From assembly GCA_028711505.1 (NCBI GenBank), contig JAQTSC010000004.1, forward strand, positions 1 to 62,706: a DNA stretch of 62,706 nucleotides, in the 5' to 3' direction. Made by a program: the position numbers and the translations under genes. This document shows positions 24,878-45,114 of this stretch, piece by piece (positions within the stretch are counted from its first letter, which is position 1; each line of letters begins with the position of its first letter). This DNA comes from Minisyncoccota bacterium. Lineage in GTDB: Bacteria > Patescibacteriota > Minisyncoccia > JAHISW01 > Tagabacteraceae. The notes beneath the pieces were generated by a model that was given only the letters and a program-made list of their open reading frames with translations, was not told where the DNA came from and ran no database searches.

Positions 24878-24949
24878 GCGCGGTTAGCTCAGTGGCAGAG
24901 CAACGCTTTTACACAGCGAAGGCCGGGGGTTCAAATCCCTCACCGCGCA
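24878..24949 (+). tRNA. tRNA-Val (anticodon TAC)
   Basis: Acceptor GCGCGGT/ACCGCGC, D-arm GCTCAGTGGCAGAGC, anticodon loop TTTACAC, T-loop TTCAAAT. Confidence 0.88.
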
Positions 24950-25307
24950 ATGAGCGAAGCGAACGGAGCGGTGAAAGAAAAGCAAACTGCTTTGCTTTTC
25001 GCCGGGATTTGAAGGCCGGAGTTATGCCGAGCAAAGCGAGGCAAACGAGGCGGGGCCGAAAAATCCGCCAATGGCGGATATTTGTGGCAAAATCCCTCAC
25101 CGCGCAATGAGCGAAGCGAACGGAGCGGTGAAAGAAAAGCAAACTGCTTTGCTTTTCGCCGGGATTTGAAGGCCGGAGTTATGCCGAGCAAAGCGAGGCA
25201 AACGAGGCGGGGCCGAAAAATCCGCCAATGGCGGATATTTGTGGCAAAATCCCTCACCGCGCAATGAGCGAAGCGAACGGAGCGGTGAAAGAAAAGCAAA
25301 CTGCTTT
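24933..25307 (+). repeat. 2.4 tandem copies of a 157-nt unit that begins with the last 17 nt of tRNA-Val
   Basis: AAATCCCTCACCGCGCA occurs at 24933, 25090 and 25247. Units 1 and 2 are identical base for base, and unit 3 breaks off at 25307. More GC-rich than the flanks, with internal hairpins. Confidence 0.95.
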
Positions 25308-39719: not shown

Positions 39720-39793
39720 TGGTGCGGGATGGGAGAATCGAACTCCCGCCCAGAGTTTGGAAAACTCTTATTCTGCCATTAAACTAATCCCGC
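39720..39793 (-). tRNA. tRNA-Gly (anticodon TCC), CCA encoded
   Basis: GCGGGATTAGTTTAATGGCAGAAT..., anticodon loop TTTCCAA, acceptor 3' ATCCCGC-A-CCA. Confidence 0.9.
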
Positions 39794-39990
39794 GCGTTGT
39801 TTCATGTGAACCCCCCTAGAAGTTCAATGGAATGAACCTTTATTAATTCTTATTTATTTTGACCATGGGGACAAGCTGTGAATAAATATGGAAAAAATCT
39901 GTGTTATCTTATAATACCTTTGTTTATAGTGTCCATTAGAAATGTCCGATATACACAATTTGTTCATTACTTCCTCTTCATTTTCGTTTT

Positions 39991-40168
39991 TCGCAATTGC
40001 TGAACGAAGCGCGAACCTTTTTTGAACAAAATCCTGACTGATTGCCGCGCTTCGCGCGGCAGAAACTGAACGCTCGGGCGGGCAAAAAGGAAGGGGGTTG
40101 GGGGGGGAAGGAATTTTTGCCCGCCCTCGCTTTCCGACTCCGATTTTTCCGCCGCCGCCGAATTTCGT
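39991..40168. repeat. inverted repeat A (left copy, 178 nt)
   Basis: Reverse complement of 41980-42158, checked base by base. The only difference is G8 here versus C9 in the partner. Contains hairpins GCCGCGC-TTC-GCGCGGC and GGGCGGGCAAAAA-(25 nt purine loop)-TTTTTGCCCGCCC. Confidence 0.97.
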
Positions 40169-40197
40169 GCCAACTTAGTTGGCACGCCGCCTATATT

Positions 40198-40626
40198 TCA
40201 ACTCTTGGTATTTCTAATAGAACTTTTCATTCTATAAAATTCCTCTTTGTTTTCCTGGGGCTCGTTTAATGAATTATAGTCAATTAATATTTCTTCTCCT
40301 CCCTTTATATCCTTTGCAGCATAATACCATTTATATTTTTTTTGAAACACATTTGGACTTTCGGAATGATTTATATACCAGCCAATTTCCATGTGTCCAA
40401 AATCATTTGGGCAAAGTAATTTTTCCCCTCGATCAACACAATATCCCCGAAGAATCACCGGAATTTTTTCTTTGCTAACTAAACGAGCTCTATCAACCTC
40501 GTCTTCAATTTGGTTTCCCCAGAGCCTCAAACGTGTGCCTTTTATAATATCATGAATCGTGAAAACACCGATACCATGCTTCGTTGGTTTTAACACAAAT
40601 GAAAATTCGGTAGTTTTATTCTTCAT
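40198..40626 (-). CDS. SET-domain protein (putative protein lysine methyltransferase)
   Basis: 142 aa with HGIGVFT (GxG), YINHSESPN (NHSxxPN) and GEEILIDY (ELxxDY) SET signatures. Confidence 0.75.
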   Translation of the reverse strand: MKNKTTEFSFVLKPTKHGIGVFTIHDIIKGTRLRLWGNQIEDEVDRARLVSKEKIPVILRGYCVDRGEKLLCPNDFGHMEIGWYINHSESPNVFQKKYKWYYAAKDIKGGEEILIDYNSLNEPQENKEEFYRMKSSIRNTKS

Positions 40627-40638
40627 AAGAAATTTTTA

Positions 40639-41613
40639 TTACTTTCTTTTAAATATTCCAAGCTTTGCCTCCTCCTGTTGATGATATTCAAAATAGCTAC
40701 CACCCAATACTTCACCTCGCTTTTCATTTTCTTCTTTTTCTGTGTTATTCGCTTTTTCTAATACAAAATCAAATCCAAGTCGTTCGGCCGTTTCCTTTAT
40801 TTGTTCGATAATTTTTGAATCTTTATACAGCTGGTGTGTTTCCTCGAGAGTTGTTTTTTCGGTATATTCCTCATCATATGCCTCCGGATCCATATTTTTA
40901 ACTCGCTTTTCTTCTGCTATCTCTTCCGATGTCAAATCCGAAACTTTCTTCCAGACAAACTCGTTTTCTTCAAAATCAAATTTCCCCTTCCATTTAGTTG
41001 CTTTATAAATGGAAATAGGATAAATATATGCCGCTCGATCCGTAACTCGCAATATTTCGGGCAATTCTTTTTCTAAAAATGTTTTTAAATCTAGAGAGTG
41101 TTTTGGCACCGAGTCAGAAACAATAGCCACGCTTAATGCCCTATCTTTTAGGGGAAGTTTGGCAAGATCAGCCACTATATACTTTGATTTCGCTTTTTCA
41201 ATCACCGCTTGTATAGTTTCCGTATAATCTATAAATGGATTCTCAAATCCCATATTTCTTTCAAGTTCATTGGGCAATTTTTTTGCAGGATATTTATAAA
41301 TATCATTCAATGGACCTAATTGAAATTTTCTCTTAATAACCCCGCTGTACCGGGTTTGATTGGCTTCGTGCATCAAATCAATCGGAACCACATCGATGCC
41401 TCTTAACTCACCTTCCGCAGGAATTGTGGAAAAACTGGCACCCAAATCGCCAATCGGTTTTCCGGTTTTTTTATAAATCTCAGAAAGATTTTGCCAGCTC
41501 AAATTTAGATGCGGAAAAAGCTCGAAACTGCTGTCATTGCCAAGCCATCTAAATTCTTCTTTGTTTTCTCTCTTTTCTACATATTCCGGTAACTTTTCAT
41601 AAAATTTAGGCAT
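40639..41613 (-). CDS. hypothetical protein, possibly a divergent class I SAM methyltransferase fold with an acidic C-terminal region
   Basis: 324 aa with IGDLGAS (motif I-like), VVPIDL (acidic post-I) and ADLAKLPLKDRALSVAIVSDSV (motif II/III-like). Degenerate, so a weak call. Confidence 0.35.
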   Translation of the reverse strand: MPKFYEKLPEYVEKRENKEEFRWLGNDSSFELFPHLNLSWQNLSEIYKKTGKPIGDLGASFSTIPAEGELRGIDVVPIDLMHEANQTRYSGVIKRKFQLGPLNDIYKYPAKKLPNELERNMGFENPFIDYTETIQAVIEKAKSKYIVADLAKLPLKDRALSVAIVSDSVPKHSLDLKTFLEKELPEILRVTDRAAYIYPISIYKATKWKGKFDFEENEFVWKKVSDLTSEEIAEEKRVKNMDPEAYDEEYTEKTTLEETHQLYKDSKIIEQIKETAERLGFDFVLEKANNTEKEENEKRGEVLGGSYFEYHQQEEAKLGIFKRK

Positions 41614-41617
41614 AAAT

Positions 41618-41824
41618 TTATTTTAACAATTCATCCGCCGAAACTCCAAGAGCCTTAGCTAATTTCTGAATTGTTGCAAGCGTTGGGTTTCTTTTTCCAT
41701 TTTCAATCCCGCTGATATAAGCTCGGTGAACTTCTAATTTGCGAGAGATTGCGCCCTGCGACAATTTTTTAGCGGTTCTAATCCGCTTTAGATTTTGACC
41801 AAGTTTTGTTGATATTTCGACCAT
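41618..41824 (-). CDS. XRE-family helix-turn-helix regulator
   Basis: 68 aa with LKRIRTAKKLSQGAISRKLEVHRAYISGIENGKRNPTLATIQKLAKAL. Confidence 0.85.
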   Translation of the reverse strand: MVEISTKLGQNLKRIRTAKKLSQGAISRKLEVHRAYISGIENGKRNPTLATIQKLAKALGVSADELLK

Positions 41825-41979
41825 AAGATTATTTACATTGTATCTCTTGTTGCATTATTAGGCAATGTTGTATTATAATGATACATATGAATAAGGGGAG
41901 CAAATTTGTTGTGTGCGCACGGGTGGGTGGGGCAAACACAACCCCTTTTTTCTTGGCGGCGCATTTCGCAAAGCGAAAT

Positions 41980-42158
41980 ACGAAATTCGGCGGCGGCGGA
42001 AAAATCGGAGTCGGAAAGCGAGGGCGGGCAAAAATTCCTTCCCCCCCCCAACCCCCTTCCTTTTTGCCCGCCCGAGCGTTCAGTTTCTGCCGCGCGAAGC
42101 GCGGCAATCAGTCAGGATTTTGTTCAAAAAAGGTTCGCGCTTCGTTCAGCAATTGCGA
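41980..42158. repeat. inverted repeat A' (right copy, 179 nt)
   Basis: Reverse complement of 39991-40168 with one extra C in the homopolymer (42041-42049). Confidence 0.97.
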
Positions 42159-42313
42159 CCAACTTAAACTTTTTTCAAATTCAGAAGCGTTTTGTTGCTC
42201 GCTCGCCCCGCCTTCGGCGGGTCTCGCTTCGCAAAAAGCCCTGTATTTCGGAATTAAATCGTAAGGTCGGACAAATTCAAATTCAGTTTTTCGGGAAATC
42301 AAACGGCGGTTCG
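42156..42313. repeat. inverted repeat B' (158 nt), an inverted copy of the recombinase gene 3' end
   Basis: Exact reverse complement of 43836-43993. After a 33-nt indel the repeat resumes for 14 nt (42347-42360 versus 43821-43834). Confidence 0.97.
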
Positions 42314-42466
42314 GAATTGCGAAACAATTCACAAATGAAATTTGTATCCAATTTTTTCCGTTTTTGCCAAAGGCAAAAAGACAAAGCAAGTTTTTTAATC
42401 CCGCGCTTTTGCGCCGTAGGCGCAATTGCCTAAGGTGACAATTATTAACTTAATGAGGTAAACACT

Positions 42467-44110
42467 ATGAAAATAAAATTTTTTCTCTACGCAAGGAAAT
42501 CTACCGAAGATGAAGAAAGACAAGTGATGAGCATTGAAGCACAATTAGCGGAGTTGGCGGAATTTGCCAAGCGGGAAAACATAGAAATTGCCGAAACTTT
42601 TATTGAGAGCAAAAGCGCAAAGAAACCGGGCCGAGAAATTTTTAACGAGATGATGAGCAAGGTTCACGAGAGCAAAGAGCCAATCGGCTTAATTGCGTGG
42701 CACCCCGACCGCTTGGCAAGAAATTCCGTTGACGGCGGACAAATAATTTACAGCATAGACATCGGCAAGATCGTTTCTTTGCGCTTTCCCACTTTTTGGT
42801 TTGAGCCAACTCCGCAAGGTTTGTTTATGCTTCAAGTCGCCTTTGGCCAGTCAAAATATTATTCCGACAATTTGTCGGAAAATGTTAAGCGCGGGATTAG
42901 GCAAAAACTCAGGCGGGGCGAATGGCCGACACTTGCGCCGTTCGGCTATGTGAATAATCCAAAGACGAGAACCATTGAACCCGAACCGACAAAATCAAGG
43001 TGTGTTACCAAAGCGTTTGAGGAATTCGCGCAAGGCCGGCATACTTTAGAATCTTTAGGCCAACGCCTGAGTTTTTGGGGCGTGGTGAGCGGAACCGGAA
43101 AACCACTTTGTAAAGCGACACTCCAACGAATGCTGACAAACAAAGTGTATCTCGGTTTAATCGTTCATAACGGCGAAACTTATGAGGGCGGTTTTCCGGC
43201 AATTGTTTCCCGAGCGACTTTTGAAGCCGTCCAAAAAGTATTAAAACAGCGAGCAAGACCTCGCAAAAGCAAAAAACGGCATAACTTCCCATTTGTCGGA
43301 CTTTTAACTTGTGGCGAGTGTGGTGGAGCCATTACCGCGCAATTTGCCCACGGACACGGAGGAACCTATCGCTATTATCGTTGCACCAAAAAGCTCGGTA
43401 AATGTTCGCAACGATATTTGCGCGAGGACTTGCTCGCTGAACAATTAAAATTACGGCTTCAAAATGTCGCTCTTTGCGACGACTGGGCGGAGAAGATGAA
43501 AACTCAAGTTGATGTTTGGGAAAAAGATAACGCCCAGTCATCGCAATCTTTTGCCCAAAATCTTGAGGAAAAAATCAAAGAAACGGAAACGAAACTTGAT
43601 AAACTGGTCAACGCTTTCTTGGACGGCTCTATTGAAAAAGAAACTTACCTTGTCAAAAAAGACGAACTCATCAAAACAAAAACAGACCTTAACAAAAGAA
43701 AATCTGATTTTGGGCGAAAGGGAAACAATTGGATTGAACCTTTGCGGGAATGGATAAAGACTGCTCACCACGCCGAAAAACTTGCTTTGTCCAATGATTT
43801 TTATGAAATAAAATCATTGGCGGAAAAAATTGGAACGAACCGCCGTTTGATTTCCCGAAAAACTGAATTTGAATTTGTCCGACCTTACGATTTAATTCCG
43901 AAATACAGGGCTTTTTGCGAAGCGAGACCCGCCGAAGGCGGGGCGAGCGAGCAACAAAACGCTTCTGAATTTGAAAAAAGTTTAAGTTGGTCGGGGCGCC
44001 GAGACTTGAACTCGGACTACAACCTCCCAAAGGTCGCGTGCTGCCATTACACTACGCCCCGATTATGGCGCCACCATCATCCAGCTGGCCCGTTTCATAT
44101 GAAACGCTAA
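42467..44110 (+). CDS. large serine recombinase (true C-terminus uncertain; last ~39 codons read through tRNA-Pro)
   Basis: YARKSTEDEERQVMSIEAQ catalytic-Ser N-terminus, recombinase domain, Zn ribbon CGECGG...YYRCTKKLGKC, coiled coil, and a TGAGGT Shine-Dalgarno sequence. The ORF stays open through repeat B and the antisense of tRNA-Pro. Confidence 0.85.
   Translation: MKIKFFLYARKSTEDEERQVMSIEAQLAELAEFAKRENIEIAETFIESKSAKKPGREIFNEMMSKVHESKEPIGLIAWHPDRLARNSVDGGQIIYSIDIGKIVSLRFPTFWFEPTPQGLFMLQVAFGQSKYYSDNLSENVKRGIRQKLRRGEWPTLAPFGYVNNPKTRTIEPEPTKSRCVTKAFEEFAQGRHTLESLGQRLSFWGVVSGTGKPLCKATLQRMLTNKVYLGLIVHNGETYEGGFPAIVSRATFEAVQKVLKQRARPRKSKKRHNFPFVGLLTCGECGGAITAQFAHGHGGTYRYYRCTKKLGKCSQRYLREDLLAEQLKLRLQNVALCDDWAEKMKTQVDVWEKDNAQSSQSFAQNLEEKIKETETKLDKLVNAFLDGSIEKETYLVKKDELIKTKTDLNKRKSDFGRKGNNWIEPLREWIKTAHHAEKLALSNDFYEIKSLAEKIGTNRRLISRKTEFEFVRPYDLIPKYRAFCEARPAEGGASEQQNASEFEKSLSWSGRRDLNSDYNLPKVACCHYTTPRLWRHHHPAGPFHMKR
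43836..43993. repeat. inverted repeat B (158 nt)
   Basis: See B'. Its last 3 nt (TCG) are the discriminator plus the last two acceptor bases of tRNA-Pro (minus strand). Confidence 0.97.
43991..44061 (-). tRNA. tRNA-Pro (anticodon TGG)
   Basis: CGGGGCGTAGTGTAATGGCAGCAC..., anticodon loop TTTGGGA, T-loop TTCAAGT, acceptor 3' CGCCCCG-A. Confidence 0.88.
44091..44106. repeat. 16-bp perfect palindrome CGTTTCATATGAAACG
   Basis: Read directly. Lies between the cobA-like stop and tRNA-Pro. Confidence 0.9.
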
Positions 44111-44670
44111 AATTCAATTCCCTTTCTCGCTAAAATTCCTTTTTTGAAAGGGTGCTTTTTGTTTTCAAAAAAAGTAATGTAATCAGCTTTAGAAAAAATT
44201 TTTTTGTTCGCTTTTCTCCCTGTTAAAACAAGTTCGGTCCTATCAGACTTGTCTTTTATAATGTCCAATATCTTTTGGACATTTACAAGACCCATAAATT
44301 CGCTAACGCATATTTCATCCAAAACCACCAAGTCATATTTTCCCGAACAAACCACTTTTTTAGCTTCTTTCGTTGCTTTTTCAGCTTCTTTTTTATCAAT
44401 TTCTTTTGCCTCCCCTTTTCTTATAAACTCCAGTTTCCCGAATTGCTTGATGTCTATTTTACCCAGTTTTTTCAAGGATTTTATTTCTCCGTAAGGGTAT
44501 TTCCCTTTCATAAACTGAATTAAACAGCATTTTAAGTCTTGTCCGGCCGCTCTTGTTAAAAGGCCTATTCCGGCGCTTGTTTTGCCCTTTCCGTCTCCGG
44601 TGTAGACATGAACAAGTCCTGTTTTGGTTTTTGCGTTTTTCCAAGCGGGTCTTTGTTTCATGTGAACCAT
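44107..44670 (-). CDS. cob(I)yrinic acid a,c-diamide adenosyltransferase-like (CobA/BtuR family) P-loop protein
   Basis: 187 aa with VYTGDGKGKTSAGIGLLTRAAG...IQFMKG...YGE pattern. Start overlaps the yraN stop (TAATG). Confidence 0.7.
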   Translation of the reverse strand: MVHMKQRPAWKNAKTKTGLVHVYTGDGKGKTSAGIGLLTRAAGQDLKCCLIQFMKGKYPYGEIKSLKKLGKIDIKQFGKLEFIRKGEAKEIDKKEAEKATKEAKKVVCSGKYDLVVLDEICVSEFMGLVNVQKILDIIKDKSDRTELVLTGRKANKKIFSKADYITFFENKKHPFKKGILARKGIEF

Positions 44671-45088: not shown

Positions 45089-45114
45089 TTTAGAGTTTCA
45101 TATGAAACTCTAAA
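45089..45114. repeat. 26-bp perfect palindrome TTTAGAGTTTCAT|ATGAAACTCTAAA
   Basis: Read directly. Lies between nusA and the yraN-like gene. Confidence 0.9.

Follow-up and report, generated by a model that had tools for sequence, protein, structure and literature searches.

A 4.0-kb integrative element at a tRNA-Pro gene with a predicted attachment site inside its large serine recombinase gene

Small non-phage elements such as Tn4451 and Tn5397 are moved by a single large serine recombinase (TnpX or TndX), have a circular form, require no separate directionality factor, and use a GA dinucleotide at the element ends and in the target. In the SSV1-type archaeal integrases, the attachment site of the element (attP) lies inside the integrase gene, int, and integration into a tRNA gene partitions int. 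Mycobacteriophage BPs and its relatives display integration-dependent immunity, in which attP lies within a coding gene and integration alters both the C-terminus of the encoded protein and the state of the element (PMC4557955). For large serine integrases, the accepted distinction between attP and the host site (attB) is that the motif for the second DNA-binding domain (DBD2, a zinc ribbon) lies 5 bp further inward in attB than in attP, SPbeta being a 4-bp outlier (PMC11722253). Here, we describe a 4.0-kb integrative element (positions 39994-43993) at the 3' end of a tRNA-Pro(UGG) gene in a 62.7-kb stretch of DNA from a Minisyncoccota bacterium (contig JAQTSC010000004.1, referred to here as the window). 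Its large serine recombinase is its only mobility gene.

Our data make it highly probable that this element integrated at tRNA-Pro through an attP located within the open reading frame (ORF) of its own recombinase, that integration swapped the C-terminal tail of the enzyme, that a spare, inverted attP has been conserved within the element, and that the attP arm mimics the tRNA T-loop. With moderate confidence, loss of the tail would also stabilize the integrated state.

Layout of the element and evidence for its insertion

Junctions, repeats, and ORFs were checked directly on the sequence of the window, and tRNA genes were identified with ARAGORN and Rfam. We found that the window contains only two pairs of inverted repeats of at least 40 nt, both located between tRNA-Gly(TCC) (39720-39793, minus strand), a host gene beyond the far side of the insertion, and tRNA-Pro(UGG) (43988-44061, minus strand; Rfam 60.8 bits). 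Repeat A (39991-40168, plus strand) and its inner inverted copy A' (41980-42158, minus strand) form an inverted repeat of 178/179 nt that is 99.4% identical with one homopolymer indel (G8/G9), and an ungapped repeat finder reports this pair as two pieces at 94%. The G/C homopolymer of 8 versus 9 residues (40098-40113 versus 42040-42056) is the sole difference between the copies and lies within a G-rich stretch, GGAAGGGGGTTGGGGGGGGAAGG. Repeat B' (42156-42313, minus strand) and repeat B (43836-43993, plus strand) form an inverted repeat of 158 nt that is 100% identical. A and A' enclose three minus-strand genes, while B' and B enclose the recombinase gene (42467-44110, plus strand); B' is an inverted copy of recombinase codons 457-509, set 153 nt ahead of the recombinase start.

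A' and B' overlap by the trinucleotide CGA (42156-42158), and the outer tips of A (39991-39993, the core of attL) and B (43991-43993, the core of attR) both read TCG on the plus strand. Read on one strand, the three junctions are flank/TCG/A, B/TCG/A, and B/TCG/tRNA-Pro. Position 43991 is the discriminator of tRNA-Pro, positions 43992-43993 are the last two bases of its acceptor stem, and positions 43988-43990 are its encoded CCA. All six positions lie within B, which ends in TGG-TCG, the reverse complement of the CGA-CCA that closes the tRNA, so that the tRNA gene is intact with its last 6 nt (CGACCA) derived from the element. The inner repeats A' and B' contain an intact attP in inverted orientation (B/TCG/A on the minus strand), whose limits of approximately 42128-42186 correspond to about 28 bp on either side of the core and whose columns are conserved across 85 sequences. 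The outer repeats hold the two halves of a second attP, with A carrying the P' arm together with the distal part of the repeat and B carrying the P arm within the 3' coding end of the recombinase. We conclude that A/A' and B'/B together make up a single inverted duplication of the attP region, divided into halves by integration.

Relatives of the host were fetched through the closest matches of the neighboring CobA-like gene. In one of these (L171; CobA 72% identical), NusA, YraN, CobA, and tRNA-Pro(UGG) are followed, across a 117-nt spacer, by tRNA-Gly(UCC), and a recombinase is absent. In another (L172), CobA is followed by tRNA-Pro and no element is found. When positions 39994-43990 are removed from the window in silico, the remainder is colinear with the L171 locus and the reconstructed attB matches the L171 empty site. 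The host flank (39794-39990) aligns to the L171 spacer and represents the native spacer between tRNA-Pro and tRNA-Gly, that is, the non-tRNA arm of the former attB; the spacer block common to both loci is TATATCGGACATTTCTA. At the tRNA-Pro end, L171 reads CCCGA/AAAATG, without an encoded CCA, while the window reads CCCCGA/AAAACGAAAATG. These sequences indicate that the tRNA gene, which in L171 has no encoded CCA, gains one from the element, with B rebuilding the tRNA end CGACCA. Exact-protein look-ups of the genes flanking the element in the window returned one short contig ending in tRNA-Gly, or nothing.

We found that this layout is conserved. One scan each of genome and metagenome collections yielded 160 loci with recombinases that are 45-97% identical. 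These loci are mostly from metagenome-assembled genomes (MAGs) of Patescibacteria, while some were binned as Planctomycetia, Omnitrophica, Bdellovibrionales, Gammaproteobacteria, Bacteroidetes, or Nitrospirales. An apparent isolate genome, that of Chitinophagaceae bacterium PMP191F (LGYU01000006.1), contains a member with 56% identity, a 157-nt repeat that is 100% identical, and a tRNA-Ser target. Among the first 83 sequences (82 fetched loci and the window), the B'/B repeat surrounds the recombinase gene in 75, is 70-190 nt long, and is mostly 95-100% identical. An A/A' pair adjoins B' in 27 of these sequences and in 42 loci overall, where it encloses 1.1-8.2 kb of cargo encoded on the strand opposite to the recombinase in approximately 40 of the 42. 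A tRNA gene on the opposite strand abuts B (by 4-7 nt) in 111 of 166 loci, and the targets (tRNA-Pro, Gln, Glu, Ser, Ala, Leu, Lys, Arg, Ile, Gly, Trp, and Tyr) are sorted by subfamily. The recombinase reads into the tRNA in these 111 loci, and the tRNA lies upstream in only 4. In many subfamilies B' is found only 2-70 nt from the recombinase start codon. In one locus (L041, 1-5445), A'B' and BA copies with 90% identity across approximately 300 nt flank the recombinase, and more direct and inverted copies of distal A are found approximately 3.3 kb downstream.

A core shared by all three junctions is present in 28 of the 29 loci that could be anchored and is 2-16 nt long, most often 4 nt. At a single locus, the chance cost of extending one repeat 3 nt into the other is only 1/64; since cores are shared throughout the family, the TCG of the window is not a coincidence. 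The same layout is present in a 640-kb contig of a long-read MAG (L011), and many repeat pairs are 82-99% rather than 100% identical. Together, the long-read layout and the non-identical copies exclude an assembly artefact and indicate that the copies are real duplicates. Many contigs end inside B' or B, as would be expected of repeats that exceed the assembler k-mer.

These results bear on several claims of an earlier note on this DNA. It had reported the same TCG at the tip of A, the A'/B' overlap, and the tip of B, which we confirmed on the sequence, and had equated the last of these with the discriminator and final acceptor-stem bases of tRNA-Pro, with which both ARAGORN and Rfam agree. 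Its reading of the junctions as attL, attP, and attR of an element at the tRNA-Pro 3' end is upheld by the shared cores and by the unoccupied syntenic site in L171, and its concern that the 3-nt overlap might be coincidental is answered by the 28 loci. It had not remarked on the encoded CCA, on the conservation of the inverted inner attP and both repeat pairs beyond this contig, or on the likeness of the attP arm to the T-loop at the 5-bp offset.

Our data indicate that the conserved order of A, cargo, inverted A'B', recombinase, and B/tRNA, present in more than 100 loci that are mostly from Patescibacteria, is new here. A full-text literature search found no prior description of the family or its layout, though absence there is no proof of novelty. 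Viral, phage, and plasmid collections contained no close relatives: there were 3 weak matches among 2.9 M viral contigs (IMG/VR), and identity to records in plasmid or phage collections was at most 28%.

Two C-termini of the recombinase and its attachment sites

The recombinase contains the domains Resolvase (PF00239, E=6e-22, residues 6-153), Recombinase (PF07508, E=6e-13), and Zn_ribbon_recom (PF13408, E=5e-11). In the homolog alignment, S12, the serine nucleophile of the N-terminal catalytic domain, lies within an invariant YARKSTE motif, and C282, C285, C306, and C313 likewise do not vary. On the strength of its domains and of the logic of its sites, we assign the enzyme to the large serine recombinases, though it is distant from known ones: its best NCBIfam matches, XisF and CcrA/CcrB, fall far below their cut-offs (89 bits for XisF versus a cut-off of 375).

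More than 6500 homologs were found with the recombinase as query, the best 120 of which are 68-94% identical. W508-S509 (TGG-TCG, 43988-43993) is near-invariant, and the homologs all run through the region encoded by B, which therefore is coding. Beyond W508-S509, two classes of C-terminus are found. In the window the frame runs into antisense tRNA-Pro, such that the ORF in the contig encodes 547 residues, of which 1-509 are native and 510-547 derive from antisense tRNA-Pro and host DNA. At least 74 of the 120 closest protein clusters likewise read into antisense tRNA after WS and vary in length from 509 to 581 aa. This class has the pattern G[RC]x[DE][LS]N...PK...TPR, the in-frame antisense of a tRNA-Pro gene, where the T-loop gives rise to DSN/DLN and the NGG anticodon, read as its complement, to the P of PK. 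In contrast, approximately 30 of the 120 clusters carry a conserved tail after WS (QLLNEARTFFE...) and vary little in length (522-528 aa).

The conserved tail is also encoded in the window. Whether the frame is followed on the minus strand from B' into A', or from TCG into outer A, it reads QLLNEARTFFEQNPD and then a stop, a total of 15 codons. The outer copy lies at 39994-40041 (plus strand) and the inner copy at 42108-42155 (minus strand), in frame with B' within the minus-strand ORF 42108-42425. Directly after the tail stop is a G+C-rich hairpin, UGCCGCGC-UUC-GCGCGGCA (40043-40061, plus strand), which is present in both the minimum free energy and the centroid folds and has no following T-run, so that it is only a putative terminator. 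Across the family the tail is 13-20 aa long and follows the pattern [IL][LI]x[FE]ARTxFE before a stop. In 67 unique sequences it contains no internal stop and ends 6-21 codons after the Arg, mostly 7-12. The entropy of the tail by codon position is 0.89/0.68/1.21, and hydrophobic positions are kept through differing codons, which points to selection on the translated peptide. The Arg codon itself is CGA in 66 of the 67 sequences, which indicates a DNA-level constraint superimposed on the tail. We considered B'A' as a separate small gene and ruled this out, since, going upstream in the minus-strand frame of B', a stop is reached before any start codon in approximately half of 95 loci. As the B'A' fragment lacks a conserved start codon, the tail would be translatable only when joined to the recombinase.

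The sequences thus place the crossover after codon 509 of a native 524-aa protein, with integration predicted to swap the native tail for an antisense-tRNA reading. Since attP lies inside the recombinase ORF, 15 codons before the native stop, integration would have replaced the tail. The alignment of homologs called for in the earlier note therefore favors its suspicion that the antisense-tRNA-Pro end is not native: at least 74 clusters have such ends at variable lengths, while the QLLNEARTFFEQNPD-type tail is the conserved one, and homologs do not stop short of B. Its proposals that the frame ahead of the GCCGCGC-TTC-GCGCGGC hairpin is the natural gene end, and that integration alters the 3' end of the recombinase, agree with the two C-terminal classes and with the hairpin in both folds. 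It had counted 17 codons in the alternative frame, which we correct to 15.

We found that attP sequences anchored on CGAAC align colinearly in a single frame. An apparent difference between subfamilies in the frame of an AAGTTT motif in the B arm was dropped, as anchoring on CGAAC gives one frame. In the window this motif (40012-40016, plus strand) spans the Arg-Thr codons of the tail and is likely the recognition motif of the zinc-ribbon domain; its counterpart in the attB arm is the antisense T-loop TTGAAC of tRNA-Pro (44006-44011, plus strand). In 67 loci the distance from GAAC to the junction is 14 nt in the tRNA arm (antisense T-loop T[CT]GAAC) versus 19-20 nt in the attP arm. We identify this placement of CGAAC, 5-6 bp further out in attP than in the tRNA T-loop, with the attP/attB offset known for serine integrases. 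Because the attP arm carries CGAAC at this offset, the tRNA arm is probably recognized at least partly through the universal T-loop. Together with the acceptor end, this universal sequence appears to be what the enzyme reads, which would explain how subfamilies moved among tRNA species.

The flanks on the non-tRNA side vary between loci. At one tRNA-Pro (L093, 1-5460), two differing family members are found in tandem: the second, with a recombinase that is 43% identical to that of the window, sits in the attR of the first and uses the first element's B as its flank, and the first recombinase reads into the A arm of the second element. The differing flanks and this insertion indicate that the non-tRNA arm of attB has little specificity.

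The crossover occurs within tRNA positions 71-73, and the core of the window permits TC or CG as the crossover dinucleotide. The shortest core in the family (CG in L107) hints at positions 71-72. Dyad symmetry did not assign the dinucleotide, as the centers of the inner and outer motifs differ by 1-2 nt. The earlier note had remarked on a GA dinucleotide, which is indeed present in the window within the tRNA-strand core CGA; it is not a constant of the family, since the tRNA-strand cores of other subfamilies are CAGCCA, CCGC, CCAC, GCAC, and GGAC (on the recombinase strand, cores of other subfamilies are TGGCTG, GTGA, GCGG, GTGG, GTGC, and GTCC).

Proposed free form and mechanism, and alternative explanations

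Two contigs from two samples (L168 and L169) contain the cargo, A'B', the recombinase, and a B/A junction that keeps the native tail, an arrangement that fits an excised circle. Their repeat copies differ at three sites, and an A-specific site lies 69 nt from a B-specific site across the junction. With copy-specific single-nucleotide polymorphisms this close, the contiguity of recombinase and B/A in these contigs is physical rather than a mis-walk of the assembly graph. In four others (L002, L170, L100, and L106), the native tail is followed by co-directional cargo, which corresponds to a flipped arrangement in contigs that cannot be phased. Native-tail contigs were rejected as a general proof of circles or flips because the repeats exceed the k-mers and only L168 and L169 are phased. 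A further locus (L070, 9780-11604) has a recombinase module between tRNA-Leu genes (CAA on the plus strand and GAG on the minus strand), with repeat copies that are 93.6% identical and neither an A repeat nor cargo. This looks like a deletion produced by recombination of the inner attP with a second attB, from which the inner attP appears to be recombination-competent. At L096 (9565-9700), a complete tRNA-Pro(CGG) is followed after 24 nt by a 36-nt tRNA-Pro 3' fragment with a different acceptor end, which is joined through CCA to B'; here a tRNA fragment lies on the upstream side of the recombinase.

Since A'B' is an intact inverted attP and A and B are two halves of a second, the simplest free form would be a double-stranded circle in which two inverted attP copies separate the cargo from the recombinase. 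Integration would normally proceed through the attP copy inside the recombinase gene, with attP (B/TCG/A) and attB (flank/TCG/tRNA-Pro) recombining to give attL (flank/A) and attR (B/tRNA). Loss of the tail would then, with moderate confidence, alter or abolish recombinase activity and stabilize the integrated state. Two events would restore the full-length gene, namely excision and a flip of the segment that B' and B bound and that carries the recombinase; upon excision, the circle would join the outer tail to codon 509.

Several observations weigh against this explanation. No contig among the loci bore the terminal direct repeats that would mark a circular sequence, and L167-L169 could represent a tandem array rather than a circle. 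Since the repeats are longer than typical assembler k-mers, the orientation of the recombinase segment in contigs from short reads and many of the native-tail proteins may be graph mis-walks. The empty-site search that the earlier note had proposed succeeded in L171 and L172, relatives whose CobA is only 71-72% identical; the exact pattern of a same-strain empty site, TTTTCGTTTTTCGGGGCGCCGAG, had 0 matches in JGI metagenomes, and the circle junction of the exact window strain was not found. The invariant CGA of the Arg codon places part of the tail conservation at the DNA level, so that the peptide may matter little. An AlphaFold2 model of a native-tail homolog (29 aligned sequences) contains long helices at 338-441, a candidate for the coiled-coil inserted in DBD2 of large serine integrases, and is too poor to show where the tail docks (predicted local distance difference test 65, predicted template modeling score 0.32). 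Finally, CG as the crossover dinucleotide would be a palindrome, an unusual feature in an integrase with directionality.

The role of the tail can be read in two ways, each of which we consider more doubtful than likely. The first goes beyond the explanation above in proposing, tentatively, a switch made of one protein: integration would truncate and lock the enzyme, and a spare cassette of attP plus tail (A'B') would rebuild it through inversion or excision, replacing a separate directionality factor. An inversion between B' and B, either through homologous recombination of the host or catalyzed by the enzyme itself between the inner attP and attR, would put the native tail back and re-arm the enzyme for excision while the element is integrated. 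Such a switch, our favored though doubtful guess at the role of the inner attP, would explain the upkeep of a full inverted attP and tail nearly identical to the outer copies, as well as the dominance of the truncated isomer among integrated copies (111 loci versus 4 with the tRNA upstream), and it agrees with the contigs in which a native tail precedes co-directional cargo (L002, L170, L100, and L106) and with the position of B' within 2-70 nt of the start codon in many subfamilies. It also has a precedent, as fusions of an integrase to its recombination directionality factor (RDF) show that a tethered C-terminal helix can control direction (PMC11722253, PMC6511857); examples are the fusion of SPbeta Int to its RDF and an RDF C-terminal helix that is essential (PMC11722253). 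However, the flipped isomer is confined to contigs from short reads, for which phasing is impossible (L028, L096, and L160), the importance of the tail is putative, and the enzyme borne by a circle always has the tail, from which it follows that the tail cannot simply inhibit integration. Alternatively, the swap could be functionally neutral, the tail being mainly a by-product of a P'-arm binding motif that overlaps the 3' end of the ORF, with the tRNA-tailed enzyme working equally well. The near-invariant CGA codon, the match of CGAAC to the T-loop motif, and an ORF that is intact to codon 509 in most integrated copies would all be expected in that case, but the conservation of the tail has a period of three, its hydrophobic positions are kept through varied codons, and its frame is never interrupted, with a stop always within 21 codons of the Arg and mostly within 12. 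We regard neutrality, too, as less likely to be true than false.

The remaining alternatives concern the repeats and the layout itself. The inner attP could serve as an autoregulatory operator over the 5' region of the recombinase, with the identity of the copies due merely to gene conversion. It does lie in the space from which the recombinase and cargo genes diverge, and in many subfamilies B' directly adjoins the start codon, but approximately 50 bp would be enough for an operator and 300-700 bp are kept at 95-100% identity, making this improbable. We consider a single-stranded intermediate resembling that of CTXphi very improbable. In such a circle the inverted BA/A'B' pair would form a double-stranded attP stem, and insertion of a dumbbell strand would yield the order A, cargo, A'B', recombinase, B; the repeats are indeed far longer than a binding site needs. 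Serine recombinases, however, use concerted double-strand breaks (PMC11722253), cutting of the stem would leave a broken chromosome capped by hairpins, and the cargo surveyed in the window and the family contains no phage structural, replication, or lysis genes and no rolling-circle genes. A resident phase-variation invertase without mobility would account for inverted repeats that bracket a recombinase gene and for database names such as 'DNA invertase Pin-like', which are a generic annotation among the homologs; empty sites in relatives, cargo and tRNA targets that vary, the tandem accretion in L093, and an enzyme that is a large serine recombinase rather than a small invertase make it scarcely credible. 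An artefact is less credible still: B' and B are 100% identical and longer than common k-mers, as expected of a chimeric or hairpin assembly, and a 3-nt TCG overlap could arise by chance, but the layout recurs in more than 100 independent contigs from many studies, including the long-read MAG, many of them with non-identical repeats and different tRNAs.

Cargo, implications, and comparison with known systems

The three cargo genes of the window are all on the minus strand. The first, beside A', encodes a 68-aa helix-turn-helix (HTH) regulator (41618-41824; HTH_3, PF01381, E=3e-19) that resembles the controller (C) proteins of restriction-modification systems (PADLOC Control_protein, E=4.5e-18). 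Downstream of this gene are those for a 324-aa protein (40639-41613), which has no match in Pfam, NCBIfam, or PADLOC and contains motifs that by eye may be S-adenosylmethionine-methyltransferase-like (IGDLGAS and VADLAKLPL), and for a 142-aa SET-domain protein (40198-40626; PF00856, E=1e-9). The window cargo matched no known defense system in Pfam, NCBIfam, or PADLOC. Across the family the cargo is variable and defense- or toxin-antitoxin-like, including DNA methylases, ResIII, AbiEii-like ATPases, SocA, HepT/MNT, and LexA-like repressors, and no conserved accessory gene that could encode a directionality factor was seen in it.

Two features of the surrounding host DNA were also observed. The palindrome GTTTCATATGAAAC or its variant TTGTTTCATGTGAACC occurs upstream of both tRNA-Pro and tRNA-Gly as well as at two further positions (44092-44105, 45095-45108, 39797-39812, and 44653-44668), and an identical palindrome abuts tRNA-Pro in L171 (5143-5156); this is probably a host promoter or regulatory motif. 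Elsewhere in the window (24933-25307), a 157-nt tandem repeat is present in 2.4 copies, and each unit opens with the last 17 nt of tRNA-Val(TAC) (24878-24949). These tRNA-Val 3'-end fragments may be remnants of attachment sites that other integrative elements left behind.

If our explanation is true, the state of a recombination site is written into the C-terminus of the enzyme itself, and the tail swap or the conserved second, inverted attP could reveal how a serine integrase controls direction without a separate factor. In Patescibacteria and further uncultured lineages, in which few mobile elements have been described, the family represents a very common vehicle for defense and toxin-antitoxin cargo at tRNA genes. 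It also offers hundreds of natural triplets of recombinase, attP, and attB that can be read from sequence, with attB sites that are ordinary tRNA gene ends and a simple recognition logic (T-loop motif plus acceptor end), which may interest builders of integrase tools. The member in the apparent isolate genome of Chitinophagaceae bacterium PMP191F makes these questions experimentally approachable in a culturable host.

Similar to the SSV1-type integrases, to which the earlier note had likened it, the element has its attachment site in the recombinase ORF, a tRNA target, and an integrated copy that encodes an altered recombinase. The analogy holds for the way of working and not for membership. 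The SSV1-type enzymes are tyrosine recombinases of archaeal viruses and plasmids whose gene is split into two large parts, whereas here a serine enzyme swaps only its last 15 or so codons and the element retains its gene's 3' end in a spare copy. Since the window enzyme has serine recombinase domains only, it is an SSV analogue in function. The element shares with Tn4451 and Tn5397 a small, non-phage nature and movement by a single large serine recombinase, but its core matches the 3' end of the tRNA and differs from one subfamily to another, while the TnpX/TndX elements have no inverted duplication of attP and no attP within an ORF.

In the yeast 2-micron plasmid and in the attP of CTXphi, two inverted copies of a site within long inverted repeats likewise separate two unique segments. 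This is a likeness of layout only, as Flp and XerCD are tyrosine recombinases and no replication or phage genes are found here; the folded single-stranded attP of CTXphi differs further from the present system, with its serine recombinase and absence of phage or rolling-circle genes. The Hin, Gin, and Pin invertases are approximately 190 aa long, with a C-terminal HTH and inverted sites of approximately 26 bp, whereas the enzyme here is 524-547 aa long and has recombinase and zinc-ribbon domains. A temperate phage integrase would be accompanied by prophage genes, and the window cargo consists of three genes, none of them of prophage type. In BPs, as in our element, integration rewrites the end of a protein (PMC4557955); there it is a repressor gene in a phage with a tyrosine integrase, and here it is the recombinase gene itself.

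The closest relationship is to the large serine integrases (phiC31, Bxb1, A118/LI, and SprA of SPbeta). They have the same Resolvase, Recombinase, and zinc-ribbon domains, convert attP and attB into hybrid attL and attR through a very short core, and place the outer motif approximately 5 bp nearer the center in attB (PMC11722253). The enzyme described here is distant from them in sequence (SPbeta integrase match, E=7e-11). It differs further in that no directionality factor was found, that it belongs to a non-phage element, that its target is the 3' end and T-arm of a tRNA, that its attP lies within its own ORF, and that a second, inverted attP is conserved.

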